DNA of 64,000 bases. Origin: an uncultured Oscillospiraceae bacterium (GTDB lineage: Bacteria; Bacillota; Clostridia; Oscillospirales; Oscillospiraceae). The notes under the pieces are model-generated. The model did no database searches. It saw only the letters and a list, made by a program, of their open reading frames with translations, and was not told where the DNA came from. Numbering within the stretch: position 1 is the stretch's first letter; every line of letters begins with the position of its first letter. The DNA is taken from positions 1,443 through 65,442 of the forward strand of contig CAYWNW010000008.1 of the NCBI GenBank assembly GCA_964459785.1, given 5' to 3'. The position numbers and the translations under genes are program-made. Shown here in pieces: positions 6,911-23,546 of the stretch.

Positions 6911-7397
6911 AGTGTATTTAACCCGTGAAAAGCGCGGTTTGGGTCAGCCCGCGGCAAGGCTTTTAATTGTCAAGGCGCTGAACGCCGCGCTGAACGCCGA
7001 AAACATTGAGCTTCCCTGTGAGGTAAGCGTTTTGCTTACCGACGATGAGGGCATTCGCAGGCTTAATAAGGAATTTCGGAATATTGACAGCGCGACGGAC
7101 GTGCTCTCCTTTCCTGCCAATGAGTTCGCCGCCGGCGCTTTTAATTCCGCTGAAGCAGAAAAAAACCTCACAAGCGGGCGAATCGTTCTCGGCGACATGG
7201 CGCTCTCGCTTGAGCGCGCTCACGCTCAGGGAGAGGAATTCGGACACGGCACAAAAAGGGAGATTCAGTATCTGACCGTACACAGCGTTCTGCACCTTGT
7301 CGGCTATGACCATGTTGACGAGGGCGAGGGAAAGCGCGCTATGCGTCAGCGTGAAAAGGAGATTATGGCTCGTATTGAGGGCGTGAGGGAAGAATGA
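6900..7397 (+). CDS. ybeY: rRNA maturation endoribonuclease YbeY
   Basis: ATG at 6900 (MKHKVYL) follows AAGAGGA. The metal-binding motif HSVLHLVGYDH is present. The gene overlaps the phoH stop. Confidence 0.9.
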   Translation: MKHKVYLTREKRGLGQPAARLLIVKALNAALNAENIELPCEVSVLLTDDEGIRRLNKEFRNIDSATDVLSFPANEFAAGAFNSAEAEKNLTSGRIVLGDMALSLERAHAQGEEFGHGTKREIQYLTVHSVLHLVGYDHVDEGEGKRAMRQREKEIMARIEGVREE

Positions 7398-7840
7398 AAA
7401 GTTTTGTTTACGCTTCTCACGGTTTTTTCGAAACGGTTCGGACGCAACGCAATATGCGTGTGCACCTTTGCTTTGCGTTCTATGTGATTTTAGCGGGGCT
7501 TGTCACGCACATTTCAAAATCCGAATGGGCGGCGGTGCTGATTTGTATAGGGCTTGTCACGGCGCTCGAGTGCCTTAACACCGCTTTAGAGAGTCTAAGC
7601 GACACGGTGCATCCCGAAAAGTGCGAGGGCATCAGGATAGCCAAGGACGCCTCCGCGGGAGCTGTGCTCGGCGCTGCTTTAATCGCAGCCGTCGTCGGCG
7701 GAATCGTGTTTTTTAACGGGCAAAAAATAAACGCGGCGCTGGAGTTTTTTGAAACGCAAACGGCGCTTTCGATACTGATAATACTTACGCTTGTACCCCT
7801 CGTAATTTTTGTTCGGGGCAGAAAGAGAGAAATTAAATGA
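7394..7840 (+). CDS. dgkA: Diacylglycerol/undecaprenol kinase
   Basis: 148-aa protein with three TM segments in the canonical ybeY-dgkA-era position. Its ends overlap the neighbouring genes (ATGA). Confidence 0.8.
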   Translation: MKSFVYASHGFFETVRTQRNMRVHLCFAFYVILAGLVTHISKSEWAAVLICIGLVTALECLNTALESLSDTVHPEKCEGIRIAKDASAGAVLGAALIAAVVGGIVFFNGQKINAALEFFETQTALSILIILTLVPLVIFVRGRKREIK

Positions 7841-8754
7841 GTAAAAAAGAACTGTCAGGCGACTATAAAACGAAGTCGGCGATGATTACCGTTGTGGGCC
7901 GCCCGAATGTCGGGAAATCCACCCTAACCAATACGCTTGTCGGTGAAAAAATCGCCATCGTGTCAAATAAACCGCAGACCACAAGAAACCGTATATGCGC
8001 TATTATTAACCGCGGCGACACGCAGATAGTGCTGCTCGATACCCCGGGCTTTCACAAGGCGAGGACCAAGCTCGGCGACTACATGGTCAAGGTCGTAAAC
8101 GAGAGCGTTGCTGATGTGGACGCGATTGTCCTCATGGTGGAGCCGATTGCCTCGGCGGGACCGCAGGAACTCGAGCTTATCGAAAAAATCAAGCAGAGCA
8201 AGTGTCCCGCCGTTCTGGTGATAAACAAAATCGACACCGTGCAAAAGGAGCAGCTTCTCGCCGTTATCGCGGCCTACTCCGCCCTTCATGATTTTGACGC
8301 GGTGGTTCCGATAAGCGCTAAAAAGCACGAGAACACGGACGAGCTGCTAAGCCAGCTCGAAAAATATGCCGCGCCCGGACCAAAGCTTTTCCCCGAAGAC
8401 GCGGTGACAGACCAGCCCGAAAGACAGGTTTGTGCCGAAATCGTCCGCGAGAAGCTTCTCAACTGTCTTGACAAGGAAATTCCGCACGGCACGGCTGTTG
8501 TCGTGACAAAGTTTTCCGAGCGCGAGGACACGGAGATAATAGACCTCGATGTCACGATTTATTGCGAAAAGGCGAGCCACAAGGGCATAATAATCGGGAA
8601 AAACGGCGAAATGCTCAAGAAAATCGGCGCTGCGGCTCGAGCTGACATCGAGAAATTCATGGGTACAAAGGTGTTCTTGCAGACATGGGTGAAGGTTAAG
8701 GACAATTGGCGCGACAGCGACAATCTTTTAAGAAATTTCGGTTACAGGGACTGA
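7837..8754 (+). CDS. era: GTPase Era
   Basis: G1 GRPNVGKST, G3 DTPG, G4 NKID, and a C-terminal KH domain (GIIIGKNGEMLKKIG). Confidence 0.95.
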   Translation: MSKKELSGDYKTKSAMITVVGRPNVGKSTLTNTLVGEKIAIVSNKPQTTRNRICAIINRGDTQIVLLDTPGFHKARTKLGDYMVKVVNESVADVDAIVLMVEPIASAGPQELELIEKIKQSKCPAVLVINKIDTVQKEQLLAVIAAYSALHDFDAVVPISAKKHENTDELLSQLEKYAAPGPKLFPEDAVTDQPERQVCAEIVREKLLNCLDKEIPHGTAVVVTKFSEREDTEIIDLDVTIYCEKASHKGIIIGKNGEMLKKIGAAARADIEKFMGTKVFLQTWVKVKDNWRDSDNLLRNFGYRD

Positions 8755-9186: not shown

Positions 9187-9930
9187 ATGTTCAAAACAAC
9201 CAGAGCACTCGTCCTGAGAGAAGTAAAATATAAGGAAGCGGACAAAATTCTAACCGTACTCACCGAGGATGAGGGGAAGCTGACCGTTTCCGCCAGAGGC
9301 GTTATGCGCAGGGGCAGCAAAATTGCCGCTGCGTGTCAGTTTTTGACTTTTTCGGAGATGACGCTTTTCGAAAATCGCGGGAAATGGTATGTTGACGAGG
9401 CACAGACCGTTGAACAGTTTCTGGGCCTGCGCGAGGATATTGCGCTTCTGGCTCTCGGAACCTATTTTGCGGAGCTTCTGGAGGCGGTTTCAGACGAGGA
9501 CAGTCCGAATCCAGAGGTTTTGAGGCTGGGGCTTAACAGCCTTTACGCTCTCGGAAGCGGTTTGTACGCGCCGGAGCACATCAAGGCGGTTTTTGAGCTG
9601 CGTCTCATGTGCCTTTCGGGCTACGAGCCGGCTTTGGACTGCTGCCCCGTTTGCGGAAAAGAGGAAATGGATGTTCCCGTTTTCAGCACGCTCGGCGGAA
9701 CAGTTATCTGCGGGAAGTGCAGAAACTTAGAGTACGGCGAAACCTTTCCGCTCTGCGCGGCCTCCCTTGCCGCGATGAGGCACATCTCGGGCGCTGAAAA
9801 CAAGAAAATCTTTTCATTTTCATTGGATGACAAGGCGGCAAAGCGGCTTTACACCGTCTGCGAGGCCTATGTTTTAGCGCAGCTTGAGCGCAGGTTTTCC
9901 GCGCTCGATTATTGGAGAAGCGTGAAGTAA
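9187..9930 (+). CDS. recO: DNA repair protein RecO
   Basis: 247 aa with an N-terminal OB-fold segment and the zinc motif CPVCG...CGKC. It sits at the typical position after era. Confidence 0.9.
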   Translation: MFKTTRALVLREVKYKEADKILTVLTEDEGKLTVSARGVMRRGSKIAAACQFLTFSEMTLFENRGKWYVDEAQTVEQFLGLREDIALLALGTYFAELLEAVSDEDSPNPEVLRLGLNSLYALGSGLYAPEHIKAVFELRLMCLSGYEPALDCCPVCGKEEMDVPVFSTLGGTVICGKCRNLEYGETFPLCAASLAAMRHISGAENKKIFSFSLDDKAAKRLYTVCEAYVLAQLERRFSALDYWRSVK

Positions 9931-10144
9931 CGCTTTAGTTTTGTAATTACCCTTACCACGGAGAAAAATATGGAACTTGCATTTTCAAGACAAAACAATA
10001 AACATCTCATTGATAAGGTGTAGCAACGTTTTGCGGTTTTGTCGCCTACCGACAAATTCTCAGCTTAATATGCCTAACCGACAGAACAGAATCCTGTCTT
10101 TCTGACGTTTAAGATGTGCAATGTATTGAGTTGAGTGTTGGCTC

Positions 10145-10159
10145 GTTTTGTCGGTTTTA
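10145..10159. repeat. Left inner inverted repeat GTTTTGTCGGTTTTA
   Basis: Exact reverse complement of 21070-21084. Confidence 0.8.
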
Positions 10160-10509
10160 AAAGTTATCAAATTATGAGATAAGTTCCACTGATAAAGCTC
10201 TTGCATAACTTCAATAGAGAATATGCCATTTGTGTTGTTCAATTGCTTTTTTAGAAAATCAAATCGTTAAGGCGTCAGTTGCAAATTGTCTTATATGGCT
10301 GCCTTACAGTTGTAATAAAAAATTGTGATGATGGATATGCACTGGCCTTATCTATGAATATTCCGCGCGAGATTGAGCGCCTTGACCGGGCGAATTGTGC
10401 ACTGTAACCGCGCAGCTTGGGCATGGCTTCCGCGCCCGTTGGGCACTTGCAATATAATGTGAATATGCGCCGCTTACCGCGGTGTAAATATTCATAGGAG
10501 GTCATCAAC

Positions 10510-11186
10510 ATGACCAATTATCGCGAGGTTCTGAGGCTTAGTAGCCTCGGGCTCAACAAAGTGGAGATAGCCCAAAGCTGTGGCTGCTCAAGGAACACTG
10601 TAGCTGCAATATTGCAGCAAGCGGAGAGCTGTGGCTTAAAGTGGCCGCTGCCAGACTCTTTATCGGACAAGCATCTGGCAGAAATGATTTATCCTGCTGC
10701 ATCAGAAAAACCAGCCTTCAAAATGCCGGACTACGAGTATGTTCACCGTGAACTCCAGAAAAACGGCGTCACGCTGAATCTGCTGTGGCTGGAATACTGT
10801 GATGCCTGCAGGTCAGCAGGAGAGATACCATACCAGTCAACGCAGTTCAACAAATACTACAACGACTTTCTTGTGAAAAAGAACGCCACCATGCACCTGA
10901 ACCACAAGCCCGGTGAGATTATGCAGGTTGATTGGGCGGGAGATACGGGAACCGTAACAGATACGGATACAGGCGAAGCGATTCCAGCATACGTTTTTGT
11001 AGCCACACTGCCTTTCAGCGGCTACAGCTATGTGGAAGCGTTCTTTTCAATGAACCAGGAATGCTGGACGTCAGCTCACGTAAACGCCTACAGGTATTTC
11101 GGCGGAGTAGCCAGAATCATTCAGTGCGACAACCTGAAAACCGGAGTGGACAGGCACGGGCGCAATGAGGTTACTTTGAATCGAAC
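10510..11186 (+). pseudogene. istA: IS21-family transposase IstA, 5' fragment (about 226 codons); no istB
   Basis: N-terminal HTH (LNKVEIAQSCGCSRNTV) and a DDE core (MQVDWAG...CDNLKTGV...NRTY). The native sequence stops at about 11186-11190. The rest of the listed ORF (to 11289) is antisense read-through of hsdR. The fragment is GC-richer than the rest of the island. Confidence 0.8.
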
Positions 11187-12644
11187 CTATGTAGATTTAT
11201 CATCCTTTTCGATAGGAGTACCTGTAAATCCGATAAATGTTGCATTAGGTAACGCCTTTCTCATGTTCATGGAAAGGTTGGAATATTGACTTCTGTGTGC
11301 CTCGTCAGTAAAAACGATTACATTGGGCTTGTTGGTGAGCACTTCGATTTCCTTGTCGAAGAACAATGCTGAGGCTTGTGCTCCGTCCTCTAATACTGGG
11401 TTCTCATCAGACTTACATTGGAACTTCTGAATTGTAGTGCATATGATTTTTGCCTGCGCCTTAGACAACAGGGTTTTCATTTCCTGAACCGTTTCTGCTC
11501 TTGTAAGAATTTTGTCTAGATTGGATTCCGCAAGAGTATATTCAGAAGGGAACACCCTTGTAAAGGTCGCATAAAGTTGTTTATCCAAATCAATACGGTC
11601 TGTAATAATAACCAGCATAGAGTCCTGAAGTTCTTTGGTACGTCGTATCATCCTTGCGAGCATAACCATACTAAGCGATTTTCCCGAACCTTGTGTATGC
11701 CAGATGACCCCGCCTCTATCTAGCGGGGTTTTTCCGTTTTTAATTCTGGCAAGGGCTTTCATACAAGCACGGAACTGCTGATATCTTGCAAGTTTTTTTA
11801 TTCTTACATCGCCCTCAGTTTCATACATAATGAAAAACTGCATGACTTTCAGAAGATTATTCTTTTCAAGCAGACCTTGCAAAAACAGGTTTTGTCCGTT
11901 ATTTTCAATATCATCCATATCTTCTTTTTTAAAGGGATAAGGGTCTTTCCACTCCAGAAAGTAATCGTAACTGCTGCTGATTGTTCCAGCATAGGCATGA
12001 TACTTATTGATGATGCCCATGAAGAAGTTGGTATGGAACAGACGTTCCGCACCTTCAGATACGGAATCATCACGAATGTCCATGTACCTGCGAAGCTGAT
12101 TGTATGCGTCCTTTTTTCCAGCCTTAACATTTTCGGCATTCTCTTTAAAGGGAGATTTGGCTTCAATCACCACAACAGGTATACCGTTTATAAACAGAAC
12201 AATATCCGGAAAGATGGTTTTGTTTATACCCTGAACCTCATACTGGTTGGTTACTAAAAAGTCATTGTTTGATACATCATCAAAGTCTATGAATCGGACG
12301 GTCTGGTTCTTCTTCTGCCCATCAACAAACTGTGAAACGGTGAACTCAAGGTCAACGATTGTCTTATAGAGTTTTTCGTTAATTTCAAGAAGGGAAGTAC
12401 CAAGGGCTTCACTATTAATAAGAAACTTGACAGATGCATTTAATGAATCCTCGTTCATCCAAGGGTTCAGACGTTTTAAAGCAGCTCTTAACCTTTTGCC
12501 AAGAACGACATCACGAAAGGACTCCCTTTCACCATAAGTAGGAGCCAGTTTTTCGCCCTCTATGTAATCATAGCCAAGCTGATTAATGAGATAATCAATC
12601 GCAGGCTTTTCAACTAGGGTATATTCATTGCCTAAGTTTGCCAT
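11187..12644 (-). pseudogene. hsdR: Type I restriction enzyme R subunit HsdR, 3'-truncated (N-terminal 485 aa only)
   Basis: PD-(D/E)xK nuclease motif DIVLFINGIPVVVIEAKS, helicase motif I TQGSGKS, motif II TDEAHRSQ and motif III FTGTPI are present. The ORF stops right after motif III, so RecA lobe 2 and the C-terminal domain are absent. Confidence 0.85.
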
Positions 12645-12675
12645 TAAGCGTACGCCCCTTTTACTGAAATTGTAG

Positions 12676-13896
12676 TTACTGCATTACTCGGATTTTTCCC
12701 GTTAAGAGTTGTTCCATAAGAGCTTTTTTAAGCTGGATGAAATTTTCTCGTTGTTCAAGATAAATGTTTATATGTTTATCAAATTCCGATAGGATTAAAG
12801 CTATTTCTGCCTGTTCAACTAACGGAGGTTGTGCTATTTTGCTCTCTTTAAGAGATTTAAAATGCCTGTGATAACCTTGATTAACAATTGGAGTATTTTG
12901 TAATATGTAGTAGAAGAACCTATCATTAAATTTGCTGTTATCTGCCTTTAATATCTGAGTTCCATCTGCACCAACCGCAAATCTGAAGTCTACATATTTT
13001 ACAATTCTCGTATGGTCACCAAATACAATTACGGGTAGCTCCCCTTTGTATAGTTTTTCTTCATCATTTGTATAACCACAGATATTTTGTTGCCCTTGGT
13101 CAACTATCGGATAACTCCCGAGAGCTAAATACTCATTAGTTTTTAGCTGCTTGTATTGACTTTTTGTTTGTTTAATAAATGCTTCTTCAACCGTTAATAC
13201 TATCCACGATTTTGGTATTTTCCCAATCTCAGTATCTTTATACTCATTATGACCGATACCCTCTGTAAGAAGCTTTTTCATTATGCCTTTTTTAAGAAGC
13301 TGATAGTCCTCGATAGTCTTGTCCAGCCTCTCAATATGTTCATCTGTTGCGGAGAGAATTTCGGCTATGCGTTGTTGCTCATATTCTGTAGGAATGCATA
13401 TAATTAATGACTTTATATCCTTTAGTATAATTCTCCGTATTGCGGAACCCTTTTTCATATTAATTAATTTATTAATAGTTGACTCTGCCATAAGGTATTG
13501 AGATAGAAATGATGGGAATAAAACTTCAGTATTGGGCCTAATAATTGCAATAGATGACAACAATACAATATTATTATTTTGTTGTCTGAACAACATAATT
13601 TTTCCAATAGTTCCATCTTTAGACAGTAACACATCATCATACAATGGCCTACACCCATTTTTTTCTAGTTTATCAAAATCAGCTTTATCTATTGGTGTTA
13701 ACGATTCTAAATCAAAACCCTCTTTTTTCATATGTACAACAGTAGCAATATAATATTTTGATGAGTTTATTGGAGCTGGTGATGAATGAGAGCCATCAGT
13801 TATTGTTAAACAACTATCTTTCAAAGATTTTACTAACCAATTATCGGGTATAATGCCGACTTCTGTTTTCTTATACCCATCTTTTATCATCTTCAT
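12676..13896 (-). CDS. hsdS: Type I R-M specificity subunit HsdS (two target-recognition domains)
   Basis: 406 aa with two-TRD organisation, conserved central (EQQRIAEILS..D..I) and C-terminal (EQAEIALILSEFD...LLTGKIRV) helices. It lies between hsdM and hsdR. Confidence 0.85.
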   Translation of the reverse strand: MKMIKDGYKKTEVGIIPDNWLVKSLKDSCLTITDGSHSSPAPINSSKYYIATVVHMKKEGFDLESLTPIDKADFDKLEKNGCRPLYDDVLLSKDGTIGKIMLFRQQNNNIVLLSSIAIIRPNTEVLFPSFLSQYLMAESTINKLINMKKGSAIRRIILKDIKSLIICIPTEYEQQRIAEILSATDEHIERLDKTIEDYQLLKKGIMKKLLTEGIGHNEYKDTEIGKIPKSWIVLTVEEAFIKQTKSQYKQLKTNEYLALGSYPIVDQGQQNICGYTNDEEKLYKGELPVIVFGDHTRIVKYVDFRFAVGADGTQILKADNSKFNDRFFYYILQNTPIVNQGYHRHFKSLKESKIAQPPLVEQAEIALILSEFDKHINIYLEQRENFIQLKKALMEQLLTGKIRVMQ

Positions 13897-13907
13897 CTCT
13901 TTCCCAC

Positions 13908-15419
13908 CTATATCCTTTCAAAGCCAAGCTGTTGCAGGAATGAGTTGATTTTTTCTTTAGAATCAGCAATTTCCTGTTCTCTTTCAGAAATTCTACTGAT
14001 GACTTCTTCGATGTTGATTTCTTCTTCTTCCTCGGATGTATCAACGTATCTTGTTATATTAAGATTATATTCATTTTTCTGGATTTCTTCCAAGGATGCT
14101 ACCTTAGCAAATTTATCTTCATCCGAAAAAGCTTTATAAGCAGCAACAATATGCTCAATATCTTCTGGTCTGAGTTTGTTTTTATTACCGTCTTTCACAA
14201 AGCCCTGTGAAGCCTCGATAAACAGAACCTTGCCCTTTTTCTCCGCAGGCTTATTCTTATTCAAAATAATAACCGCAGCCGGAATGGATGCTCCATAAAA
14301 CAGGTTGTTGGGGAATCCGATAACTGCTTCAAACAGGTCATCCTCAAGAATTCCTTGCCTAATTTTACCCTCTTCTCCTCCTCGAAACAGAATACCGTGA
14401 GGAACGACACTTGCCATGATGCCCTTAGAGTTTAACGATGCAAGCATATGCTGAACAAAAGCCAAATCTCCATAAGAGGATGGAGCAACTCCGTAATTGA
14501 ATCGACTATAATCATTCTTTTCCGCAATTTCTCTACCCCAGTTTTTGAGAGAAAACGGAGGATTACTCAAAACCATATCAAAGGTTTTGAGAATAGAACC
14601 CTCTGTGTTTTTTGGTTCTCTTATAGTGTCGCCTTTCCAAATGGTTGCGCCAGACACGTCATGGAGCAGCATATTAAGCTTTGCAATGGCCCAAGTAGTA
14701 AGGTTGATTTCCTGCCCAAACAATTGCAAATTCCTGTGATTTTGATTGTTAGCTTTGACATACTCGATTGTGCTGATTAAAAAGCCACCAGAGCCAGCAC
14801 ATGGGTCGTAAATGCTCATGCCTTCCTTAGGCTTTAGCAGTTTAACCATGACCTCTTTTATCTCTTTTGGGGTATAGAATTCTCCACCCTTTGTTCCGCC
14901 ATCGTCGGCAAACTGTTTTATGAGGTACATATATGCATCACCTAGGATGTCGGGGGTTTCTAATCCATCGTTGGAAAGGTTCATTGCGTCAAATATTTGA
15001 ATAAGCTGATTGAGTTTGCCGTCCGGAACTCTTTCCTTATCATTATAGTTGGCAGTTGTAAGAACTCCGACGAGCTCGGAGTTTCTGGGTTCATCCTCAA
15101 TTGCCTTAAAAGCCTTGTCCAATTCAGCGCCAATATTGAGGTTGAGGTCTTTGAAGATATCCCATCTTGCCTGCTTGGGGATGAAAAAAGTTTTATAGGC
15201 TTTAGCATCCTCTAATACTTTCTCTAAGGCATCTTCCGGAAGCTTTGAGAATTGTTGTTTTTTCTCTTCTCGTTCTGCACTAAACTGGTCATTTATTCTT
15301 TTCAAAAAAAGCATACCAAATATGTATTCCATATATTGCGAAGAATTGAGCGTACCTCTTAAGATATCAGCGCAATCCCATAGCTTTTTCTCAAGTGTTG
15401 CTAAATCTATCTTTTGCAT
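13908..15419 (-). CDS. hsdM: Type I R-M N6-adenine DNA methyltransferase HsdM
   Basis: 503 aa with an HsdM N-terminal helical domain, the SAM motif DPCAGSGGF and the catalytic NPPF (VLSNPPFSLKNW). Confidence 0.9.
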   Translation of the reverse strand: MQKIDLATLEKKLWDCADILRGTLNSSQYMEYIFGMLFLKRINDQFSAEREEKKQQFSKLPEDALEKVLEDAKAYKTFFIPKQARWDIFKDLNLNIGAELDKAFKAIEDEPRNSELVGVLTTANYNDKERVPDGKLNQLIQIFDAMNLSNDGLETPDILGDAYMYLIKQFADDGGTKGGEFYTPKEIKEVMVKLLKPKEGMSIYDPCAGSGGFLISTIEYVKANNQNHRNLQLFGQEINLTTWAIAKLNMLLHDVSGATIWKGDTIREPKNTEGSILKTFDMVLSNPPFSLKNWGREIAEKNDYSRFNYGVAPSSYGDLAFVQHMLASLNSKGIMASVVPHGILFRGGEEGKIRQGILEDDLFEAVIGFPNNLFYGASIPAAVIILNKNKPAEKKGKVLFIEASQGFVKDGNKNKLRPEDIEHIVAAYKAFSDEDKFAKVASLEEIQKNEYNLNITRYVDTSEEEEEINIEEVISRISEREQEIADSKEKINSFLQQLGFERI

Positions 15420-15567
15420 AATAAAATGCCTCCATAATTAATAATTGCGGTCTTTTTATACAATAGCATCATTTTCGGACTTTTACAAATAATTAATACC
15501 TTATTTTATACCAATATGGAGATAATTGGAATATAAAGCGGTTATAAAAAGCATAGACTGGCCGAAA

Positions 15568-15600
15568 AAATCCTTAAGCCCAAACAGGACTTAAGGATTT
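15568..15600 (-). terminator. Rho-independent terminator after the HEPN gene (minus strand)
   Basis: AAATCCTTAAG / CTTAAGGATTT stem with an 11-nt loop. On the minus-strand transcript it is followed by a U-run (plus-strand A6 at 15565-15570). It separates the DUF262-HEPN unit from hsdM. Confidence 0.65.
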
Positions 15601-15679
15601 TCCTTGACTTTCGCAATATTTTGTATGTGCTTTTGAAGTAGACTAGAGAATTATATAGATAGCATTATTGCGACTTTTA

Positions 15680-16234
15680 TTATACGCTTAGACTATCAAC
15701 CATAAATTCAACGAATATAATTGCACTTGTATGTAGAGATTCTACATTTTCAAAAGTCTTTGCTTCCAAAGCATCATTCATAGATATTAAATCATTGTGG
15801 GCTAAAGAGTTTCTCAACGAACACATTTCTTGAAAAGCTTTCATGCTGCGCTCTAACGTTTCGTCTGCCGAAATTTCGTGTACTAGTGTTTCTTTAAATT
15901 CTTTGCCCAGATAGGCAAGAGGGCTTAAAAAAGCGTTTGCCTCTTTAAGCTTGTCTCGTCCAAAGTCGAACATTTTGAAAAACGAAAACATTTCCAGATA
16001 TCCGAAACCATGTGGTTTTGATTTATATTTCTTTGCATGTGTTTGCGAGTAAGATTTTAAAGACAGTGTTATTTGTGTTTCATAGTAACTTGCGCAAGAT
16101 AAGACAAACATTTTTTTTAAATGACGCTGAATGTGCTGTGCTACGGACGGTTCTTCTGGAAATACCTTATCCTGAATAAACTTATAATCTTCTATCATCT
16201 CTCCAATAGCCGAGAGTGAATTGGGTGTATCCAT
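15680..16234 (-). CDS. Small HEPN-domain protein (Rx4H motif), putative RNase effector
   Basis: 184 aa with helical composition. RNSLAH at residues 141-146 (nt 15797-15814) fits the HEPN Rx4-6H signature. The start lies 14 nt downstream of the DUF262 gene stop. Confidence 0.6.
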   Translation of the reverse strand: MDTPNSLSAIGEMIEDYKFIQDKVFPEEPSVAQHIQRHLKKMFVLSCASYYETQITLSLKSYSQTHAKKYKSKPHGFGYLEMFSFFKMFDFGRDKLKEANAFLSPLAYLGKEFKETLVHEISADETLERSMKAFQEMCSLRNSLAHNDLISMNDALEAKTFENVESLHTSAIIFVEFMVDSLSV

Positions 16235-16248
16235 TACTCCCCCTCCAA

Positions 16249-17436
16249 CTATTGCAAGATAATAGACTCAATAGCCTTTTCAATTCTCTTTTTTACATGT
16301 GCCGGTTGAGCGGTTCGCTGCTGAGACGCATTGAAAAATTCATTATCATTTTTCAAATCGCGAAGACTTCCTGATAATATGGTTCTTTCATTTAACCCAT
16401 TTATCTGAATTTCCCTGCAGACTGCAACGAAAACGGCTTCAAAATAGGAAATTACAAATTTCCCATTTTCATTTTTAAATGAGTTTTTATCCAACGCTCG
16501 GCAACTGGTCCAAAAATCGGTAAACAACCTTGATAATTCATCGATTTTATCGGCATCATAGTTTTTAGCAGTTTCCGAATATCTATTAAGGAATACTCGC
16601 ATTGGAGATTTGTATTCTTCATACATCTCTAGCATAGCGAATGCCCTTATTAACACTTCTACTTCATTCATATGCAAATCGGGTTCTTTTTTTCCAAGGA
16701 AAGTTCGCCAAGCCGGATAACGATTCAATTCAATAACTTTGTCATAAAAAGAGGAATAAAAAAGGCTCATTCTGATTTCTTGCGGTTCGAGTGTAACACC
16801 GCCGCTGTTAAGCCTGCTGAATATTTCAAACATTGATGAATAATTATCGTCGGGTGCTAACTGGCGTATCGTAATCGTACGAATAGTTCTGTTAAAATCG
16901 AAACTCGCTTTAAAATCGAACTCTCTATTTGAAGGAAGTGTGTCATAGTTTTTCCCGTTTAATGGATTCTTTTCATTCGATGCTGATGGTAACTTCAAGT
17001 TAAAATCTTCAAAATTTTCGCCAGATAAATCCTCAGGAGGGATTTCTTTACCTCTGGATAAAAAATTTCTAATAATGGCTCTTCCTGTATCATTTTTTGG
17101 AAAACGCTTATTTTTAAACAAATATATAGTTACAAGGCGTTGCTGACCATCAATTACAAGAAAATCGTTACGTGCTTGCTCAAAAATGAATATCTGGGGA
17201 ATTGGTAAGCCTATAATTATGGATTCAATAAACTTTGATGCCATATCTTTTTTCCAGATATAATTTCGCTGAAATGATGGTATTTTTATATATCCGCGTT
17301 GAATAAGGTTCATAATAACCGATATGTTATAATCGTTAGGAAGGCAATCCACCTCATATGGCTTAATGGTCAATTCCCCCTCATCAGTTTCTTCCTCAAA
17401 AACAACTTCATTCTTATTATTTTGACCGTAAGACAT
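16249..17436 (-). CDS. DUF262 (ParB-like N-terminal nuclease/NTPase fold) protein without a DUF1524/HNH domain
   Basis: 395 aa with the DUF262 signatures IPSFQRNYIW and VIDGQQRLVTIY. The C-terminal half is helical and has no His-Me finger motif. Confidence 0.8.
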   Translation of the reverse strand: MSYGQNNKNEVVFEEETDEGELTIKPYEVDCLPNDYNISVIMNLIQRGYIKIPSFQRNYIWKKDMASKFIESIIIGLPIPQIFIFEQARNDFLVIDGQQRLVTIYLFKNKRFPKNDTGRAIIRNFLSRGKEIPPEDLSGENFEDFNLKLPSASNEKNPLNGKNYDTLPSNREFDFKASFDFNRTIRTITIRQLAPDDNYSSMFEIFSRLNSGGVTLEPQEIRMSLFYSSFYDKVIELNRYPAWRTFLGKKEPDLHMNEVEVLIRAFAMLEMYEEYKSPMRVFLNRYSETAKNYDADKIDELSRLFTDFWTSCRALDKNSFKNENGKFVISYFEAVFVAVCREIQINGLNERTILSGSLRDLKNDNEFFNASQQRTAQPAHVKKRIEKAIESIILQ

Positions 17437-17912
17437 GAGTTTAGTCCTCCTTATTATATGAATATTAAAGTTCAGTCATTCATGCACACCAAATATTGCT
17501 AAATTATATCATTGTTTTTAAAAAACCGCTACTATTATCGTTTGATATTAATTGCAAATCAGCATCTATAAGTGTTTTTACGACTGTATCTTAATAAAGT
17601 TGTATCTTGCTACTCACATTTTCTGTTAATTCAATATTAATTTATATATGACTGAGCCCTGTTATGTTTGTTAGGCTCTGGCTTCGTTGAATTTCCGAAA
17701 TTCCTCTATTTTGAGTTAATTCAAATTTTTGGGATGTTGGGCATTAATGTCCGCAATCTCCACGATATAAAGCCCTGTATACTGATTGCTCTATGGCATT
17801 TGGCATTAATAATGAGCTTGGAAGCCATCAAAGGTGTCGGTACTTCTTTCCAAAAGGAACACAAACCAGCATAGACCTGTTAGGCAAAAAGGAGCAGGAA
17901 GCTAAAACTGAT

Positions 17913-18071
17913 ATGAATAGAGATTACGAATATCTGCGCCATACGATTGATATGGTAAGGAAATCGATGGGATGTATGGATGAAATGCAGAGCGCACTGC
18001 TGAGGCTCAATGCATCGGCCCAAAGAGTGTGCGGAATAGTATTGGAAAAACTCTGCAAAGGAGGAGTTTAA
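17913..18071 (+). CDS. Hypothetical 52-aa protein, first gene of the Zn-ribbon operon
   Basis: ATG at 17913 within the listed 17793 ORF. The stop lies 1 nt before the next gene start. There is no recognisable motif, and the coding status is uncertain. Confidence 0.35.
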   Translation: MNRDYEYLRHTIDMVRKSMGCMDEMQSALLRLNASAQRVCGIVLEKLCKGGV

Positions 18072-18072
18072 A

Positions 18073-18813
18073 TTGAACCAAACTAAAACGGGTCGCCCAT
18101 CAAAGGCTACCGAGTTAACGAAAATAGCTCTTGTAGATGAATATTTTCACCTTGTTGTCAAAGGCAACGCCAATGAACTGCAATACAATAAAATAGCGTT
18201 GTTCGCACAAAAAAAAGGCTATGAACTTTCTGAAATTGATTTCCGTCGCAAGAATTCAGATACTCGCAAACATATTGAGATACTCAAATCTAGGCAAAAT
18301 GAACAAGCTCAAGCCTTAGAGATTCCTGCTTATGTGCCATGGAATATTGATGTCTTACTTAACAAGAAACCATGTACGAATGCGGAAATTCGCAAATGGG
18401 TCTTACAGCATGAAGAGGTACATAAGGCTTTGATTATGTCTTCTGCATGGGCTATTGAACAGTATGAAAGTCAAAGAACGGAAATCTGCGTCTTAAAGGA
18501 AAGAGTCAAGAATCTCGAAAGCATTAATCAAGAAATGGAAGAAAACCTGACTAATACTCAACAAGAGTTAGTCAAATCAAAGGGCAAATGCACTGTCTTA
18601 TTGCAGCATTGGAATGATATTGCGCCACAGACTCATATCGCTAATATAGCTTTTTCACAGAAAACAAGTGAAAATAGAGAGATAATAAGTTTGACGGATT
18701 ACATTTTTAAGGATGTAAAAATACAGGATGATGCGCACGTGAATATGGCTAAAGATACGGAAATAGACAACCTAATAAAAGAGCTAAGGAAAGGACTTAA
18801 GGCGGATAATTAA
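18073..18813 (+). CDS. Hypothetical protein: N-terminal HTH-like TGRPSK segment plus a long coiled coil
   Basis: 246-aa ORF with a TTG start, tightly coupled to both neighbouring genes. No catalytic motif was recognised. Confidence 0.55.
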   Translation: MNQTKTGRPSKATELTKIALVDEYFHLVVKGNANELQYNKIALFAQKKGYELSEIDFRRKNSDTRKHIEILKSRQNEQAQALEIPAYVPWNIDVLLNKKPCTNAEIRKWVLQHEEVHKALIMSSAWAIEQYESQRTEICVLKERVKNLESINQEMEENLTNTQQELVKSKGKCTVLLQHWNDIAPQTHIANIAFSQKTSENREIISLTDYIFKDVKIQDDAHVNMAKDTEIDNLIKELRKGLKADN

Positions 18814-18814
18814 T

Positions 18815-19876
18815 ATGACAGCGTTACTAAAAAACGCGAACCCCGAGCTGTTTGCTCAACTTCTGAATAAAAAGAATTCTGATATAAATGTTGACTTACT
18901 AAAACAATATAGCCATAACATCGTGTGGTGGCGCTGTGTATATGGACATGAATGGCAAGCAACAGTATATAGCCGTTCTGCAGGGCAAGGTTGTCCCTTT
19001 TGCAGTAGAAAAAAAGTAATTGTGGGAGAAACGGATTTGGCAACAGTAAATCCTGTGCTTGCTGCCCAATGGCACCCAATCAAAAATGGAGAGCTTTACT
19101 CTACGGATGTTCCAGAGCAAAGCTGCAAGAAGGTTTGGTGGGTATGTGAGTATGGACATGAATGGCAAGCAATAGTAAGTAATCGTTCAAAAGGGCGTGG
19201 CTGCCCCGTTTGCAGCGGATATAAAGTAATTGTGGGAGAAACGGATTTAGCAACAGTAAATCCTGTGCTTGCTGCCCAATGGCACCCAATCAAAAATGGA
19301 GAGCTTTACTCTACGGATGTTTCTGAGCAAAGCAACAAAAAGGTTTGGTGGGTATGTGAACATGGTCATGAATGGCAAGCACATGTAAGTAATCGTTCAA
19401 AAGGGCATGGCTGCCCCTTTTGCGGTGGAAAAAAAGTAATTGTGGGAAAAACGGATTTGGCAACAGTAAATCCTGTGCTTGCTACCCAATGGCACCCAAT
19501 CAAAAATGGAGAGCTCTACTCTACGGATGTTTTTAAGCAAAGCCACAAGAAGGTTTGGTGGTTATGTGAACATGGGCATGAATGGCAAGCAACAGTGAAA
19601 AGTCGTTTTGAAGGAAGAGGCTGTCCATACTGCTATGGTAGAATAGCAATTGAAGGTGAAACGGATTTAGCAACAGTAAACCCTGTGCTTGCCGCCCAGG
19701 TGCATCCAACAAGAAATGGGAATCTTAAAGCTATAGATGTTACTGAAAAAAGTGGCAAAAAAGTTTGGTGGTTATGTGACCATGGACATGAATGGCGAGC
19801 AACCGTAATTAAACGTTCTTATGGAAATGATTGTCCATTTTGTTCTGGAAGAAGATATAGTCCAAATCACATTTAA
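18815..19876 (+). CDS. Protein made of five tandem treble-clef zinc-ribbon repeats (DUF4379-like)
   Basis: 353 aa with a five-fold repeat of WWxCxxGHEWQAxVxxRSxGxGCPxC plus the linker ETDLATVNPVLAAQWHPIKNGELYSTDV..S.KKV. Confidence 0.75.
   Translation: MTALLKNANPELFAQLLNKKNSDINVDLLKQYSHNIVWWRCVYGHEWQATVYSRSAGQGCPFCSRKKVIVGETDLATVNPVLAAQWHPIKNGELYSTDVPEQSCKKVWWVCEYGHEWQAIVSNRSKGRGCPVCSGYKVIVGETDLATVNPVLAAQWHPIKNGELYSTDVSEQSNKKVWWVCEHGHEWQAHVSNRSKGHGCPFCGGKKVIVGKTDLATVNPVLATQWHPIKNGELYSTDVFKQSHKKVWWLCEHGHEWQATVKSRFEGRGCPYCYGRIAIEGETDLATVNPVLAAQVHPTRNGNLKAIDVTEKSGKKVWWLCDHGHEWRATVIKRSYGNDCPFCSGRRYSPNHI
18925..19850 (+). repeat. About 4.4 tandem copies of a 210-bp unit inside the first Zn-ribbon gene
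   Basis: GTAATTGTGGGAGAAACGGATTT recurs at 19016, 19226 and 19436, with a diverged copy at 19646. The three central units differ at only scattered positions. Confidence 0.85.
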
Positions 19877-19892
19877 AAAAGGAGTAAGAGCA

Positions 19893-20951
19893 ATGTTGCT
19901 TAAAGATGCATCCCCAGAGATATATGCACAGATTGACCCTACAAAAAACACCGATATTGAAATTGAAAAGCTAAAGGCTCAATCAAACATTGATTTGTTT
20001 TGGCGATGTGACAAAGGTCATAGTTGGCACGCTAAAGTGTGTAGCAGAATGAGAGGCTCAAAATGTCCATACTGTCAGCATAGAGCTGTTCTTCCGGGGT
20101 TCAATGATTTGGCTAGTACATACCCTGAAATTGCAGGGGAACTTCATCCTATAAAGAATGAAAATCTTCGCGCTGATACAATATCTCCTTATTCAAACCA
20201 GAATGTATGGTGGATATGTTCTTTCGGTCATGAGTGGAAAACTAAAGTAAATAACAGGACACATGGTAAAGGATGTCCACACTGTTATAAAGAACGTTTT
20301 GCGTTTTCAGAAAACAATTTAATGGCTAGATATCCTGAAATTGCTGCACAATGGCACCCAACTAAAAATGGGGAACTGAAACCCTCAGATGTGTCTGCGC
20401 GTAGTCGTAAAAAAGTTTGGTGGAAATGTGAATGTGGGCATGAGTGGCAAGATACAGTTCTGAACCGAACCGTTAGAGGAGCAAACTGCCCATATGATTT
20501 AGGTAAAATTTATCCTCTTCAAGAAAATAATTTAACTATTAGATATCCTGAAATTGCTGCACAATGGCACCCCACTAAAAATGGAGAACTGAACCCCTCA
20601 GATGTTTTTGCGCATAGTCATAAAAAAGTTTGGTGGATATGTTGTAGTGGGCATGAGTGGCAAGCTACGGTTCTGAACCGAACCAATAATGGGACAGATT
20701 GCCCATACTGTTCAAGACGTTTTGCTATTTCAGGAACAAATGACCTACAGACGTTGTATCCGAATATTGCCAAAGAATGGTGTACGGAATTAAATGAAGA
20801 GTTGGACCCATCCAACTTCTTGCCCAAGTCCGGTAAGAGTGTTTGGTGGGAATGCTCAAAAAACCATAACCATAGGTGGAAAGCAACAATCATATCGCGG
20901 ACAGCTTTAGAGACAGGGTGCCCGTATTGTTCCGGACGTAGGGGAGAATGA
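19893..20951 (+). CDS. Paralogous five-repeat zinc-ribbon (DUF4379-like) protein
   Basis: Start moved to the ATG at 19893 (MLLKDASPEIYAQ, parallel to the N-terminus of the upstream paralogue) after AAGGAG. Five W.C..GH.W...V..R...G..CP.C units are present, and the third has lost the CxxC (CPYD). Confidence 0.75.
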   Translation: MLLKDASPEIYAQIDPTKNTDIEIEKLKAQSNIDLFWRCDKGHSWHAKVCSRMRGSKCPYCQHRAVLPGFNDLASTYPEIAGELHPIKNENLRADTISPYSNQNVWWICSFGHEWKTKVNNRTHGKGCPHCYKERFAFSENNLMARYPEIAAQWHPTKNGELKPSDVSARSRKKVWWKCECGHEWQDTVLNRTVRGANCPYDLGKIYPLQENNLTIRYPEIAAQWHPTKNGELNPSDVFAHSHKKVWWICCSGHEWQATVLNRTNNGTDCPYCSRRFAISGTNDLQTLYPNIAKEWCTELNEELDPSNFLPKSGKSVWWECSKNHNHRWKATIISRTALETGCPYCSGRRGE

Positions 20952-20978
20952 GGGGGGCATTAAATGCCCCCTCTTTTT
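20952..20978 (+). terminator. Rho-independent terminator of the Zn-ribbon operon
   Basis: GGGGGCAT / ATGCCCCC stem with a 3-nt loop, followed by a CTTTTT tract. Confidence 0.75.
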
Positions 20979-21069
20979 ATTTGTTAAGCAGCTTGTTTCA
21001 GGAGAAATGAATGCCATCTTAATAATTAGTGCCGTTGTAATTCGTAAGTGTTTGTGCTATAATTTCATA

Positions 21070-21084
21070 TAAAACCGACAAAAC
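21070..21084. repeat. Right inner inverted repeat TAAAACCGACAAAAC
   Basis: Exact reverse complement of 10145-10159. Confidence 0.8.
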
Positions 21085-21152
21085 TATCAATTTGGAAATG
21101 TTAATCCCAGAGGTGATTTGTTATAGAAAACGACAAAAATGGCAATTTTAAA

Positions 21153-23546
21153 ATGTCAGTCCCAAAGGCGACACAGCTATACGAAAAATCGATAAAAACA
21201 CTTGAGCTTCCGGCGGTTTTGGAGCTGCTTTCAAAGGAAGCGGTAAGCCTTCCGGCTAAGGAGGCCGTTCTTTCTCTGCGCCCGTCGGACAGCGAATATG
21301 AGGTTAAGCGCAGGCTCGGCGAAACGAGCGCGGCGAAGGCCATGATGGTGCTCAAGGGCAGCCCTTCCTTCGGCGGCGTGCGCGATGTGCGCTCCTCACT
21401 CTCGAGAGCGGGCATAGGCGGAATGCTCAATACGCGTGAGCTTCTGGACATCGCGGGCGTTTTACAGTCCGCAAGGACAGTGCGTGCCTACGCGGGCGGC
21501 GAGAGCTGCGGAAGAAGCGATATTGACTTCCTGTTCTCATCTCTCATGGCAAATAAATATCTTGAGGAAAGAATAACGAGCTCCATCATAGGAGAGGACG
21601 AAATCGCAGACTCTGCAAGTGCCGATCTTGCGACAATCCGCCGCCTTATCAGAGCGGCCTCCGCCAGAGTGCGCGAGGCTCTGCAAAAAATAATTTCCTC
21701 TCCGTCCTTTTCAAAAGCGCTTCAGGAGCCGATTATCACAACGCGCTCCGACCGCTATGTCGTGCCGGTCAAAGCGGACCATAAAAGCAGTATCCCGGGG
21801 CTTGTACACGACGTTTCCTCAAGCGGAGCTACGCTTTTTATCGAGCCGATGGCGGCTGTCAAGGCAAATAACGAGCTTCGGGAGCTCCACGCGAAGGAAA
21901 AGCTTGAAATTGAACGCATTTTAGCCGAGCTTTCCGCCGAGTGCGGAGACCATGCAAACGATATTATTCGGGACTTTAATGTGCTTGTGGAGCTTGACAG
22001 CATTTTTGCCAGAGCGAAGCTGAGCTATAAGCTCGACTGTCAGGAGCCCGTTATATCGGAGGGACGGGTTTACCTACGTAAGGCGCGCCACCCTCTGCTG
22101 CCGAAGGAGAGCGCCGTGCCCATCACAATTGAGCTCGGACATGAATTTGACACGCTTGTCATAACGGGACCAAACACGGGCGGAAAAACAGTTTCGCTCA
22201 AAACCCTGGGGCTTCTTTGCATTATGGCAGCCTGCGGTCTGCACATTCCTGCTGCGGACGGGAGCATGGTTCCCGTTTTTCGCAGCGTGCTTGCCGATAT
22301 AGGCGATGAGCAAAGCATTGAACAGTCGCTGTCAACATTTTCTTCGCACATGACGAATATAGTGAGAATACTGGATGAGTGCGACGACAAGAGCCTTCTC
22401 CTTTTTGATGAGCTCGGCGCGGGAACAGACCCCGTTGAAGGCGCGGCGCTTGCCGTTGCCATCATCGAAAGCGCGAGGAAAAAAGGCTCTGTAACTGCGG
22501 CGACAACGCATTACGCCGAGCTTAAAATTTACGCCACCACAACGGACGGCGTGCAGAATGCCTCCTGCGAGTTTGATGTGGAGTCGCTTCGTCCGACTTA
22601 CAGACTGCTCATCGGAATACCCGGCAAATCAAACGCCTTTGCCATCAGCGAAAGGCTGGGGCTGCCTCAGGCGGTAATTGAAGACGCGAAGGGCAGGGTA
22701 AGCTCCTCGAGCGCCAGCTTCGAGGAAACCATAGAAAAGCTCGAAAAGCAGAGACAGCTGCTTGAAAAGGACAGGGAAGAAGCCGAAAAGAAGCTGCGCG
22801 AGGCGCAGGAACAGGCTAAAAAAGCTGAAATGCTTCGCCGTGAACTCTCGGTGCGCCTTGAAAAGGCCGACGAAAAGGCAAGGCGTGAGGCGGAGCGTAT
22901 TCTTGACGATGCCAGAAGAACCGCGGAGCGAACTTTGAGCGAGCTTGACGAAATGCGCAAACGCCAAAACAAGGAATATGACCATATACGCGAAAACGAG
23001 GCCCGCGCCGAGCTCAGACGCAGCCTTAACGAGGCAAACGAACGCCTCTTGAGCCGCCAACAGGAAACGGAGCAGCCGAAGGTATCCTCCCGTCCCGTCA
23101 GGGTCGGCGACACGGTTGAACTCATATCAATGGGTGTTAAGGCGAGCGTGCTTGCGATTTCAGATGACAGAGCCCTTACGCTTCAGGCGGGTATTATGAA
23201 GGTTACGGCACGGGAGGATGAAGTTTACCTTCTGGAGAATCAGAACGTAAAGGAGAAACCGACCTTTTCCCAGCAAAGCGGGGCAACTCTCCGTACCATG
23301 TCCACAAGCTCGGAGCTTGATTTGCGCGGAATGATGATTGACGAAGCGATTCCCGTACTCGAAAGATATATCGACAGCGCCGTTTTGGGAAGGCTGGAGA
23401 AAGTGACTATCATACACGGCAAGGGAACGGGAGCACTTCGTACCGCGGTTGCACAGAGCCTGAAGCTCAACAAGGCTGTTAAATCCTTCCGTCTTGGACG
23501 TTTCGGCGAGGGGGAAACAGGCGTTACCATTGTGGAACTGGGGTAA
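21153..23546 (+). CDS. mutS2: Endonuclease MutS2 (MutS domain + C-terminal Smr)
   Basis: 797 aa with Walker A GPNTGGKT, DELGAGTDP, a long coiled coil, and the C-terminal Smr motif LDLRG...IIHGKGTGALR. Confidence 0.95.
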   Translation: MSVPKATQLYEKSIKTLELPAVLELLSKEAVSLPAKEAVLSLRPSDSEYEVKRRLGETSAAKAMMVLKGSPSFGGVRDVRSSLSRAGIGGMLNTRELLDIAGVLQSARTVRAYAGGESCGRSDIDFLFSSLMANKYLEERITSSIIGEDEIADSASADLATIRRLIRAASARVREALQKIISSPSFSKALQEPIITTRSDRYVVPVKADHKSSIPGLVHDVSSSGATLFIEPMAAVKANNELRELHAKEKLEIERILAELSAECGDHANDIIRDFNVLVELDSIFARAKLSYKLDCQEPVISEGRVYLRKARHPLLPKESAVPITIELGHEFDTLVITGPNTGGKTVSLKTLGLLCIMAACGLHIPAADGSMVPVFRSVLADIGDEQSIEQSLSTFSSHMTNIVRILDECDDKSLLLFDELGAGTDPVEGAALAVAIIESARKKGSVTAATTHYAELKIYATTTDGVQNASCEFDVESLRPTYRLLIGIPGKSNAFAISERLGLPQAVIEDAKGRVSSSSASFEETIEKLEKQRQLLEKDREEAEKKLREAQEQAKKAEMLRRELSVRLEKADEKARREAERILDDARRTAERTLSELDEMRKRQNKEYDHIRENEARAELRRSLNEANERLLSRQQETEQPKVSSRPVRVGDTVELISMGVKASVLAISDDRALTLQAGIMKVTAREDEVYLLENQNVKEKPTFSQQSGATLRTMSTSSELDLRGMMIDEAIPVLERYIDSAVLGRLEKVTIIHGKGTGALRTAVAQSLKLNKAVKSFRLGRFGEGETGVTIVELG

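Follow-up and report, generated by a model that had tools for sequence, protein, structure and literature searches.

What do two short, adjacent genes do that lie directly upstream of hsdM, in the same orientation as this type I restriction-modification (R-M) gene? The question is raised by a 64,000-nucleotide (nt) stretch of DNA from an uncultured Oscillospiraceae bacterium (contig CAYWNW010000008.1; this whole stretch is called the window). Gene A encodes a DUF262 protein (protein A) and gene B a small, putative HEPN protein (protein B). A preliminary description of the window took them for a self-contained module and a candidate defence system. The best explanation, which we consider likely, is that the two genes form an intact anti-phage cassette of the PD-T4-2 type, horizontally acquired within an island of low GC content.

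A tightly linked two-gene unit

Gene A (16249–17436, minus strand) is an open reading frame (ORF) of 395 amino acids (aa), which starts with an ATG at 17434–17436 and stops with a TAG at 16249–16251. Gene B (15680–16234, minus strand) encodes 184 aa and starts with an ATG at 16232–16234. Read from the sequence, the two genes are co-directional and only 14 nt apart, exactly as first described. Both genes have a ribosome-binding site with the sequence GGAGG on the minus strand. For gene A this site lies at 17446–17450, 9 nt 5′ of the ATG; for gene B it lies at 16242–16246, within the 14-nt spacer and 7 nt 5′ of the ATG. A putative extended −10 promoter element, TGATATAAT, was read by eye at 17503–17511 on the minus strand, about 67 nt 5′ of the start codon of gene A. 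It is not among the results of a two-hexamer consensus promoter scan.

The unit ends in its own intrinsic terminator ahead of hsdM. The preliminary description placed this terminator at 15568–15600, and RNA folding recovers a hairpin with a U-run at about 15565–15603 on the minus strand. The stem has 17 bp and a folding energy of −24.3 kcal/mol (z = −4.53), and none of 200 shuffled sequences folds equally well. A simple consensus terminator scan does not return this hairpin. Genes A and B are a real, intact and tightly linked two-gene unit with its own terminator. They are not chance ORFs, because their products match Pfam families above the curated cut-offs and have many homologues.

Protein A matches the Pfam family PF03235 (GmrSD_N/DUF262) with an E-value of 6.1e-31 over residues ~41–226. 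Three DUF262 motifs are found, all on the minus strand and with recomputed coordinates. Motif I, IPSFQRNYIW (QRxxxW), spans residues 52–61 (nt 17254–17283). Motif II, VIDGQQRLVTIY (the DGQQR nucleotide-binding/hydrolysis motif), spans residues 94–105 (nt 17122–17157), and motif III, FSRLNSGG (FxxxN), spans residues 206–213 (nt 16798–16821). Among 27 protein A homologues, the invariant positions are P53, F55, Q56, R57, N58 and W61 in motif I, D96 to R100 in motif II and F206, R208, L209, N210, G212 and G213 in motif III.

The AlphaFold2 model of protein A (predicted local distance difference test, pLDDT, 81) has a mixed alpha/beta N-terminal domain, followed by a purely helical part at residues ~220–391. 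At its N-terminus the protein has an acidic, disordered extension of ~26 residues. The top Foldseek matches of the model are BrxU, an entry of the DndBCDE-DndI system and SspE, all of them weak (E ~0.01–0.03), and ParB CTPases (cytidine triphosphatases) come next. The protein fits the ‘ParB-DUF262 + ParBDB’ architecture described by Li et al. (2025, PMC12065111). Judged by sequence and model, protein A is a DUF262 protein with a ParB/Srx fold, of the nucleoside triphosphatase (NTPase) type, with a helical ParBDB-like C-terminal domain and without a nuclease domain.

The resemblance to GmrSD, BrxU and SspE is evident: a DUF262 NTPase head with DGQQR is followed by a helical middle domain, and the presumed logic is that of a sensor that gates a nuclease. 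These enzymes, however, are single polypeptides that carry a DUF1524 His-Me DNase, whereas here the presumed effector is a HEPN protein encoded by a gene of its own, which presumably acts on RNA. Protein A has no Pfam match to DUF1524/GmrSD_C (PF07510) or HNH even at E ≤ 10, in line with the preliminary description, which had seen DUF262 signatures and no motif of the DUF1524 type. Because of this absence and of the all-helical C-terminal half, we rejected membership in the GmrSD/BrxU/SspE group. The full-length GmrSD-like models of PADLOC cover the N-terminal part of protein A only; their best stretches fall within residues 36–107, with one at 197–234.

Protein B matches HEPN_RiboL-PSP (PF18735) with an E-value of 5.1e-10 and 40 bits, above the curated Pfam cut-off of 28.4 bits. 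The motif RNSLAH lies at R141–H146 (nt 15797–15814, minus strand; recomputed coordinates), where the preliminary description had seen it, and corresponds to the Rx4H motif of HEPN domains. R141, N142, H146, N147 and D148 are invariant in 14 close homologues. In 81 partner HEPN proteins from across the tree, R141, N142 and H146 are conserved at 90% or more. The AlphaFold2 model is all-helical (pLDDT 83). Protein B is therefore best described as a RiboL-PSP-family HEPN protein by its sequence, and it is presumed to be an RNase effector.

With the RiboL-PSP-HEPN family and the HepT/MNT-HEPN toxins, protein B shares PF18735 and the Rx4H motif, but it has neither an L-PSP fusion nor an MNT partner. 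The preliminary description cited a 2013 census for a HEPN family next to DUF262 genes. Such a family beside ParB-like genes is indeed listed there, as ‘Ribo L-PSP-HEPN ... operon with ParB’ (Anantharaman et al. 2013, PMC3710099). The family is RiboL-PSP-HEPN and not, as that description had it, MAE_28990/MAE_18760, and protein B has no Pfam match to the MAE_28990 family.

Conservation of the pair and its likeness to PD-T4-2

Are the two genes kept together in other genomes? A word-indexed search returns 1,887 homologues of protein A at E ≤ 1e-10 and 14 of protein B. For protein B, a profile search returns 412 cluster representatives at E ≤ 1e-3. There are far fewer homologues of protein B than of protein A; thus B evolves faster than A. 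We looked up five protein A homologues with downstream sequence (82%, 70%, 65%, 48% and 45% identity). In all five a PF18735 gene follows 9–33 nt downstream, in unrelated neighbourhoods.

A genome scan with one genome per species gives the broader picture. It found at least 542 stretches that encode relatives of protein A, and 80 loci were kept. These 80 loci come from more than 20 bacterial phyla and from four archaeal genomes, and 75 of them have enough downstream sequence to check for the partner. A same-strand ORF of 151–231 aa that matches the HEPN profile of the window, with R-N/D-x3-H at the equivalent position, is present in 73 of the 75. The partner is truncated in two loci, and gene A is split in one. 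The median gap between the two genes is 1.5 nt, and all 81 partner proteins in related loci match PF18735.

The two proteins also diverge together. Across 78 pairs of proteins, the pairwise identities of A and B are correlated (r = 0.74, Mantel p = 0.001), with a mean identity of 51% for A and 37% for B. This correlation and the near-constant pairing show that the two genes are inherited as a unit. The self-contained two-gene module of the preliminary description is thus borne out by the co-occurrence of its parts across genomes.

Which known system does the pair resemble? PD-T4-2 is a 1.54-kb two-gene system from E. coli ECOR65, listed as ‘DUF262, HEPN’ (Vassallo et al. 2022, PMC9519451). Its PD-T4-2A has the accession RCO39066.1, and the unannotated PD-T4-2B is found in QOYX01000002 (338334–339873). 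For its first protein, HHpred gave DUF262 with a probability of 99.7%, and for the second HEPN_RiboL-PSP with 97.8% and MAE_28990 with 96.9% (PMC9519451). Cloned in K-12, PD-T4-2 protects against T4, and its deletion in the native ECOR65 strain restores T4 plaquing (PMC9519451). A statement in the preliminary description, that no experimental characterisation of such genes was known, is therefore wrong: validation on a plasmid and by native-strain deletion dates from 2022. A 2023 review tabulates PD-T4-2 under DUF262 as well as under PF18735 (PMC10952713), and Li et al. (2025, PMC12065111) count it as a DUF262-centred system separate from Menshen.

The pair in the window has the same order as PD-T4-2, a DUF262 gene without DUF1524 followed by a small HEPN gene of the RiboL-PSP family. 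In both cases the A-then-B operon is co-directional and adjacent, without a further obligatory gene. The sizes are similar too, 363 and 168 positions in the PADLOC models versus 395 and 184 aa here. Both are carried on mobile DNA and in defence hotspots. The PD-T4-2_A model of PADLOC matches protein A at 1e-42, up to profile position 360 of 363, a score comparable to that of other E. coli DUF262-HEPN pairs (7e-42 to 2e-55).

There are also differences. The sequences are distant, and the PD-T4-2_B model fails to recognise protein B. The present copy comes from a clostridial host, with its closest homologues in Clostridia-type genomes from gut metagenomes. The acidic, disordered N-terminal extension of protein A is a further feature that sets the window copy apart from PD-T4-2.

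Several results weigh against an assignment to PD-T4-2. The PD-T4-2_B model of PADLOC does not match protein B even at E ≤ 10, and the homology of protein B to PD-T4-2B would hence be transitive, via the shared Pfam family and intermediates and not via a direct alignment with the ECOR65 protein. For protein A, the NsnA model of the Menshen system scores better (3.8e-54, near full length) than PD-T4-2_A. In a Foldseek search of PDB and BFVD, nothing matched the protein B model significantly; HepT/MNT-HEPN toxins turn up repeatedly, but weakly (E 1–5, TM score 0.37–0.46). Profile searches of PDB sequences for a solved relative of the protein B family returned spurious weak matches only. Phage resistance has been shown only for PD-T4-2 of ECOR65 (PMC9519451). 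In the searched literature we found no mechanistic study of PD-T4-2 or of the DUF262-HEPN family.

Because the fold search gave nothing significant, the HEPN membership of protein B, as claimed in the preliminary description, depends on the Pfam match and the motif. The Pfam score lies above the cut-off; a fold match in support of it did not emerge.

How serious is the failure of the PD-T4-2_B model? It matches 20 of the 81 partner proteins from related loci (best 7e-7). The HEPN partner encoded on E. coli IncX1 plasmids escapes it, and that of an E. coli P2-like prophage is matched at 1.4e-8 only. The model thus appears narrow, at least for these sequences. A HEPN profile built from the protein B clade, by comparison, matches partners in other phyla at 1e-10 to 1e-30. 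A bridging partner (locus L007) is matched by the clade profile at 1e-23 and by PD-T4-2_B at 7.5e-6.

NsnA outscores PD-T4-2_A on every tested DUF262 protein of a DUF262-HEPN pair (that of the window and those of loci L012, L095, L096, L097 and L098). Protein A does have the architecture of NsnA and its best PADLOC score on that model (Menshen NsnABC; Millman 2022; Li et al. 2025, PMC12065111). Despite this score, we rejected membership in Menshen: gene A is followed by a HEPN gene, a terminator and hsdM, and there is neither NsnB nor NsnC. A gene for the NsnB ABC-type ATPase is absent directly downstream of gene A, and the 73 related loci with an intact partner also have HEPN in this place. 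A gene for the effector NsnC, with its inPIN-like N-terminal domain, was not found in the two-gene unit. Effector shuffling is described for Menshen, whereas the A-B pair is inherited as a unit. PD-T4-2_B misses many partners and NsnA outscores PD-T4-2_A; automated annotation therefore likely leaves such pairs uncalled or mislabelled.

Taking both sides together, we hold it to be very probable that the pair is a PD-T4-2-type module. It is not a new kind of system but a divergent member of this type. PD-T4-2, which shares this architecture, protects E. coli against T4; for this reason a role in defence is the best reading, and the proposal of a candidate defence system stands. Overall, the preliminary description was correct on the domains and on the likely role and overestimated the novelty.

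Genomic contexts of the pair

What surrounds the pair in other genomes? Pfam was run on the 136 genes that immediately flank it in 73 of the 80 other-species loci. No recurrent third component was found among these genes. The commonest families are phage integrase (four genes), ResIII (four) and DNA methylases (three and three); beyond these, housekeeping genes form a long tail. Since the flanking genes are unrelated between genomes, the pair is an autonomous, mobile cassette.

Phages and plasmids carry the pair as well. In Akkermansia phage Chambord (L013, ON453894, 2860–5670) it follows a DNA methyltransferase gene, with overlapping gene ends, near repressors. This copy looks like phage-borne defence or superinfection-exclusion cargo. 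On the chromosome of E. coli 504239 (L098, 2964–6827) the pair belongs to a P2-like prophage, with the CI repressor on one side and the integrase on the other. On IncX1 plasmids (L012, 3046–5560) it comes directly after the rep gene, and on 3.9-kb E. coli plasmids (L095) it fills nearly half of the plasmid. Plasmids of Acinetobacter, Klebsiella and Exiguobacterium carry it too.

The P2-like prophage, the IncX1 plasmids and the 3.9-kb plasmids represent at least three further diverged DUF262-HEPN lineages in E. coli. They were found by tblastn of plasmids and phages and by blastn through complete E. coli genomes. Their PD-T4-2_A scores, which range from 7e-42 to 2e-55, indicate that they are not the ECOR65 system itself. 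RefSeq names the partner in these lineages ‘HEPN domain-containing protein’. The distribution over mobile elements is typical of a defence or addiction cargo pair.

Loci L002, L003 and L004 carry the same 70%-identical pair with the same right flank. The left side is chromosomal in L002, whereas in L003 and L004 it is the end of a prophage, with genes for a reverse transcriptase, a tail protein and a protein with an SH3_3 domain. In the latter two loci a phage may have integrated directly beside the cassette.

The pair could mainly be an addiction, or toxin-antitoxin, module that stabilises mobile elements: the DUF262 protein would neutralise a constitutive RNase toxin, the HEPN protein, without any sensing of phages. 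The position after rep on the IncX1 plasmids and the large share of the 3.9-kb plasmids would suit such a module, as would the integrases or recombinases that adjoin the pair in several loci. HEPN-MNT is an established class of toxin and neutraliser, and the 2013 census proposed an analogous ParA-HEPN toxin-antitoxin pair (PMC3710099). The tight translational coupling and the co-divergence of A and B suit a toxin and its neutraliser too. PD-T4-2, however, protects strongly against T4, as a clone and also in the strain it comes from. With its conserved NTPase motifs and its DNA-binding-type domain, protein A exceeds what a passive antitoxin needs. Moreover, the more conserved gene is the larger, upstream one, whereas antitoxins usually evolve fast. 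We consider a mainly addictive role unlikely. Addiction and defence are not mutually exclusive, though.

Candidate mechanism and the type I R-M neighbour

How could an anti-phage cassette of the PD-T4-2 type work? GmrSD, BrxU and SspE use their DUF262 NTPase to sense DNA that is modified or comes from a phage, and the NTPase then activates the effector attached to it (PMC12065111, PMC10952713). By analogy with these enzymes, protein A would bind DNA and sense an infection cue through the binding and hydrolysis of nucleoside triphosphates. It would then release or activate a dimer of protein B. The composite HEPN site of this dimer would cleave RNA (transfer, ribosomal or messenger RNA). Cleavage would stop translation and lead to an aborted infection or growth arrest. 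For this mechanism as a whole, from sensor to RNase, we see about equal chances of being right and of being wrong.

The effector might instead act on DNA. The DUF262 protein would then be a nuclease or nickase, similar to type IV restriction enzymes, and the HEPN protein would serve as an adaptor or regulator without catalytic activity. The action of all characterised DUF262 defence proteins (GmrSD, BrxU, SspE) ends in the cleavage or nicking of DNA (PMC10952713), the 2013 census calls the partners of such HEPN proteins ‘ParB nuclease’ (PMC3710099), and T4, the target of PD-T4-2, has modified DNA. In the characterised enzymes, however, DUF1524 provides the DNase activity and DUF262 is the NTPase or sensor; the pair here lacks DUF1524. 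The conservation of R-N-x3-H in at least 90% of the 81 partner proteins also argues for a catalytically active HEPN protein. An effector that acts on DNA is thus highly improbable, and RNA remains the presumed target of the PD-T4-2-type pair.

Does the pair depend on its R-M neighbour? The pair lies in an island of ~11 kb (10000–21100) between recO (9187–9930) and mutS2 (21153–23546), delimited by a composition profile and Pfam. This island is context and not part of the module. Its GC content is 33–42%, compared to 50–54% in the flanks. It contains an IS21 istA fragment, a truncated hsdR, hsdS, hsdM, the DUF262-HEPN pair, two ORFs without Pfam match and two DUF4379 genes. A search of the island borders found neither a tRNA gene nor clear flanking direct repeats.

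The R-M genes of the island are only partly preserved. The truncated hsdR (11187–12644, minus strand) encodes 485 aa and stops 8 residues past helicase motif III (FTGTPI). It abuts the 5′ fragment of an IS21-type istA gene (10510 to ~11190), the integrase core of which is cut at profile position 81 of 102. The remaining part of hsdR was not found anywhere in the window. Both hsdS and hsdM look intact. The preliminary description placed the pair next to a type I R-M operon: hsdM and hsdS do adjoin it, but with a truncated hsdR the system is not intact.

In PrrC, a protein of the ABC-ATPase type is fused to an anticodon nuclease, and its gene is embedded in an hsd operon. The preliminary description brought it up as a parallel and so implied a similar tie to the hsd locus here. 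Like prrC in the EcoprrI hsd locus, the pair brings a gene for an RNase-type effector next to type I hsd genes. In such a dependent module the effector would be held by Hsd proteins and fired by phage anti-restriction, or it would read the methylation set by HsdMS. The position of the pair directly upstream of hsdM, in the same orientation, would fit. Among the other loci, one has a type I adjacency as well (L055, Acidobacteriota, 6911–8211), with hsdM directly downstream of the pair. Further examples of a methylase nearby are the methyltransferase gene of phage Chambord, which overlaps the start of gene A, and the DNA methylases that make up 6 of the 136 flanking genes.

A PrrC-like dependence is nevertheless very hard to sustain, and we give it hardly any credence. 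Ribosome-binding sites of its own and a strong terminator ahead of hsdM set the pair apart. Most other genomes examined have unrelated housekeeping or mobile-element neighbours, and PD-T4-2 is active when cloned alone in E. coli K-12. The own terminator, the R-M adjacency that is not conserved and a PD-T4-2 that works alone argue against a PrrC-like link. Since hsdR is truncated after helicase motif III by the IS21 remnant, there is also no functional restriction complex to guard. We therefore rejected the status of a PrrC-like element embedded in an R-M system: the pair is a separate unit, its R-M neighbour lacks an intact hsdR, and the flanks are unrelated in 73 loci, with a single other adjacent hsdM.

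In a variant of this idea, the pair could in this clade have become the ‘restriction arm’ of the decayed type I system. The methylation read by protein A would be that set by HsdM/HsdS (or, more generally, by an adjacent methyltransferase, as in phage Chambord), and unmethylated or foreign-patterned DNA would trigger the HEPN RNase. If true, this would be a modification-guided abortive infection, with an RNase in place of the lost HsdR DNase. Intact hsdMS genes lie beside the pair and methylases are occasional neighbours elsewhere, whereas the neighbourhoods are in general unrelated and PD-T4-2 is active by itself, which speaks against it. Such an arrangement seems very unlikely to us.

Other systems likewise combine a ParB-like with a HEPN part in a defence context, sometimes beside a DNA methylase: PD-lambda-5, with a ParB/HEPN protein and a methyltransferase, and the HEPN-ParB-methylase operons of the MAE_28990 type. 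They differ from the present pair in the HEPN family, in the fusion and in the obligatory methylase. For the present pair, adjacency to a methylase is only occasional.

The remaining genes of the island lie on the other side of gene A. Two ORFs of 92 and 246 aa (17793–18813, plus strand) are divergent from the pair and have no Pfam match. We rejected them as parts of the module, as they are absent beside the pair in all other loci fetched. Two tandem overlapping genes (353 and 376 aa; 18815–20951) follow, each with five DUF4379 treble-clef zinc-ribbon repeats and a DNA period of 210 nt. An Rfam match to a group I intron inside the DUF4379 genes (19659–19884) reaches 22 bits compared to a cut-off of 50 and was treated as probably spurious.

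What does a PD-T4-2-type cassette in this bacterium mean for the family? The combination of DUF262 and RiboL-PSP-HEPN has been known bioinformatically since 2013 and as an anti-T4 system since 2022. Among the two-gene cassettes that we checked, the pair is one of the most strictly conserved and most widely spread: archaea and more than 20 bacterial phyla have it, phages and plasmids carry it too, and its two components co-diverge. Detection of the PADLOC kind misses divergent branches such as this clostridial one. In such pairs a ParB-like NTPase would gate a HEPN RNase, and the RiboL-PSP-HEPN family has no solved structure that is detectable by sequence. Members that are easily handled are hence reasonable entry points for experiments.

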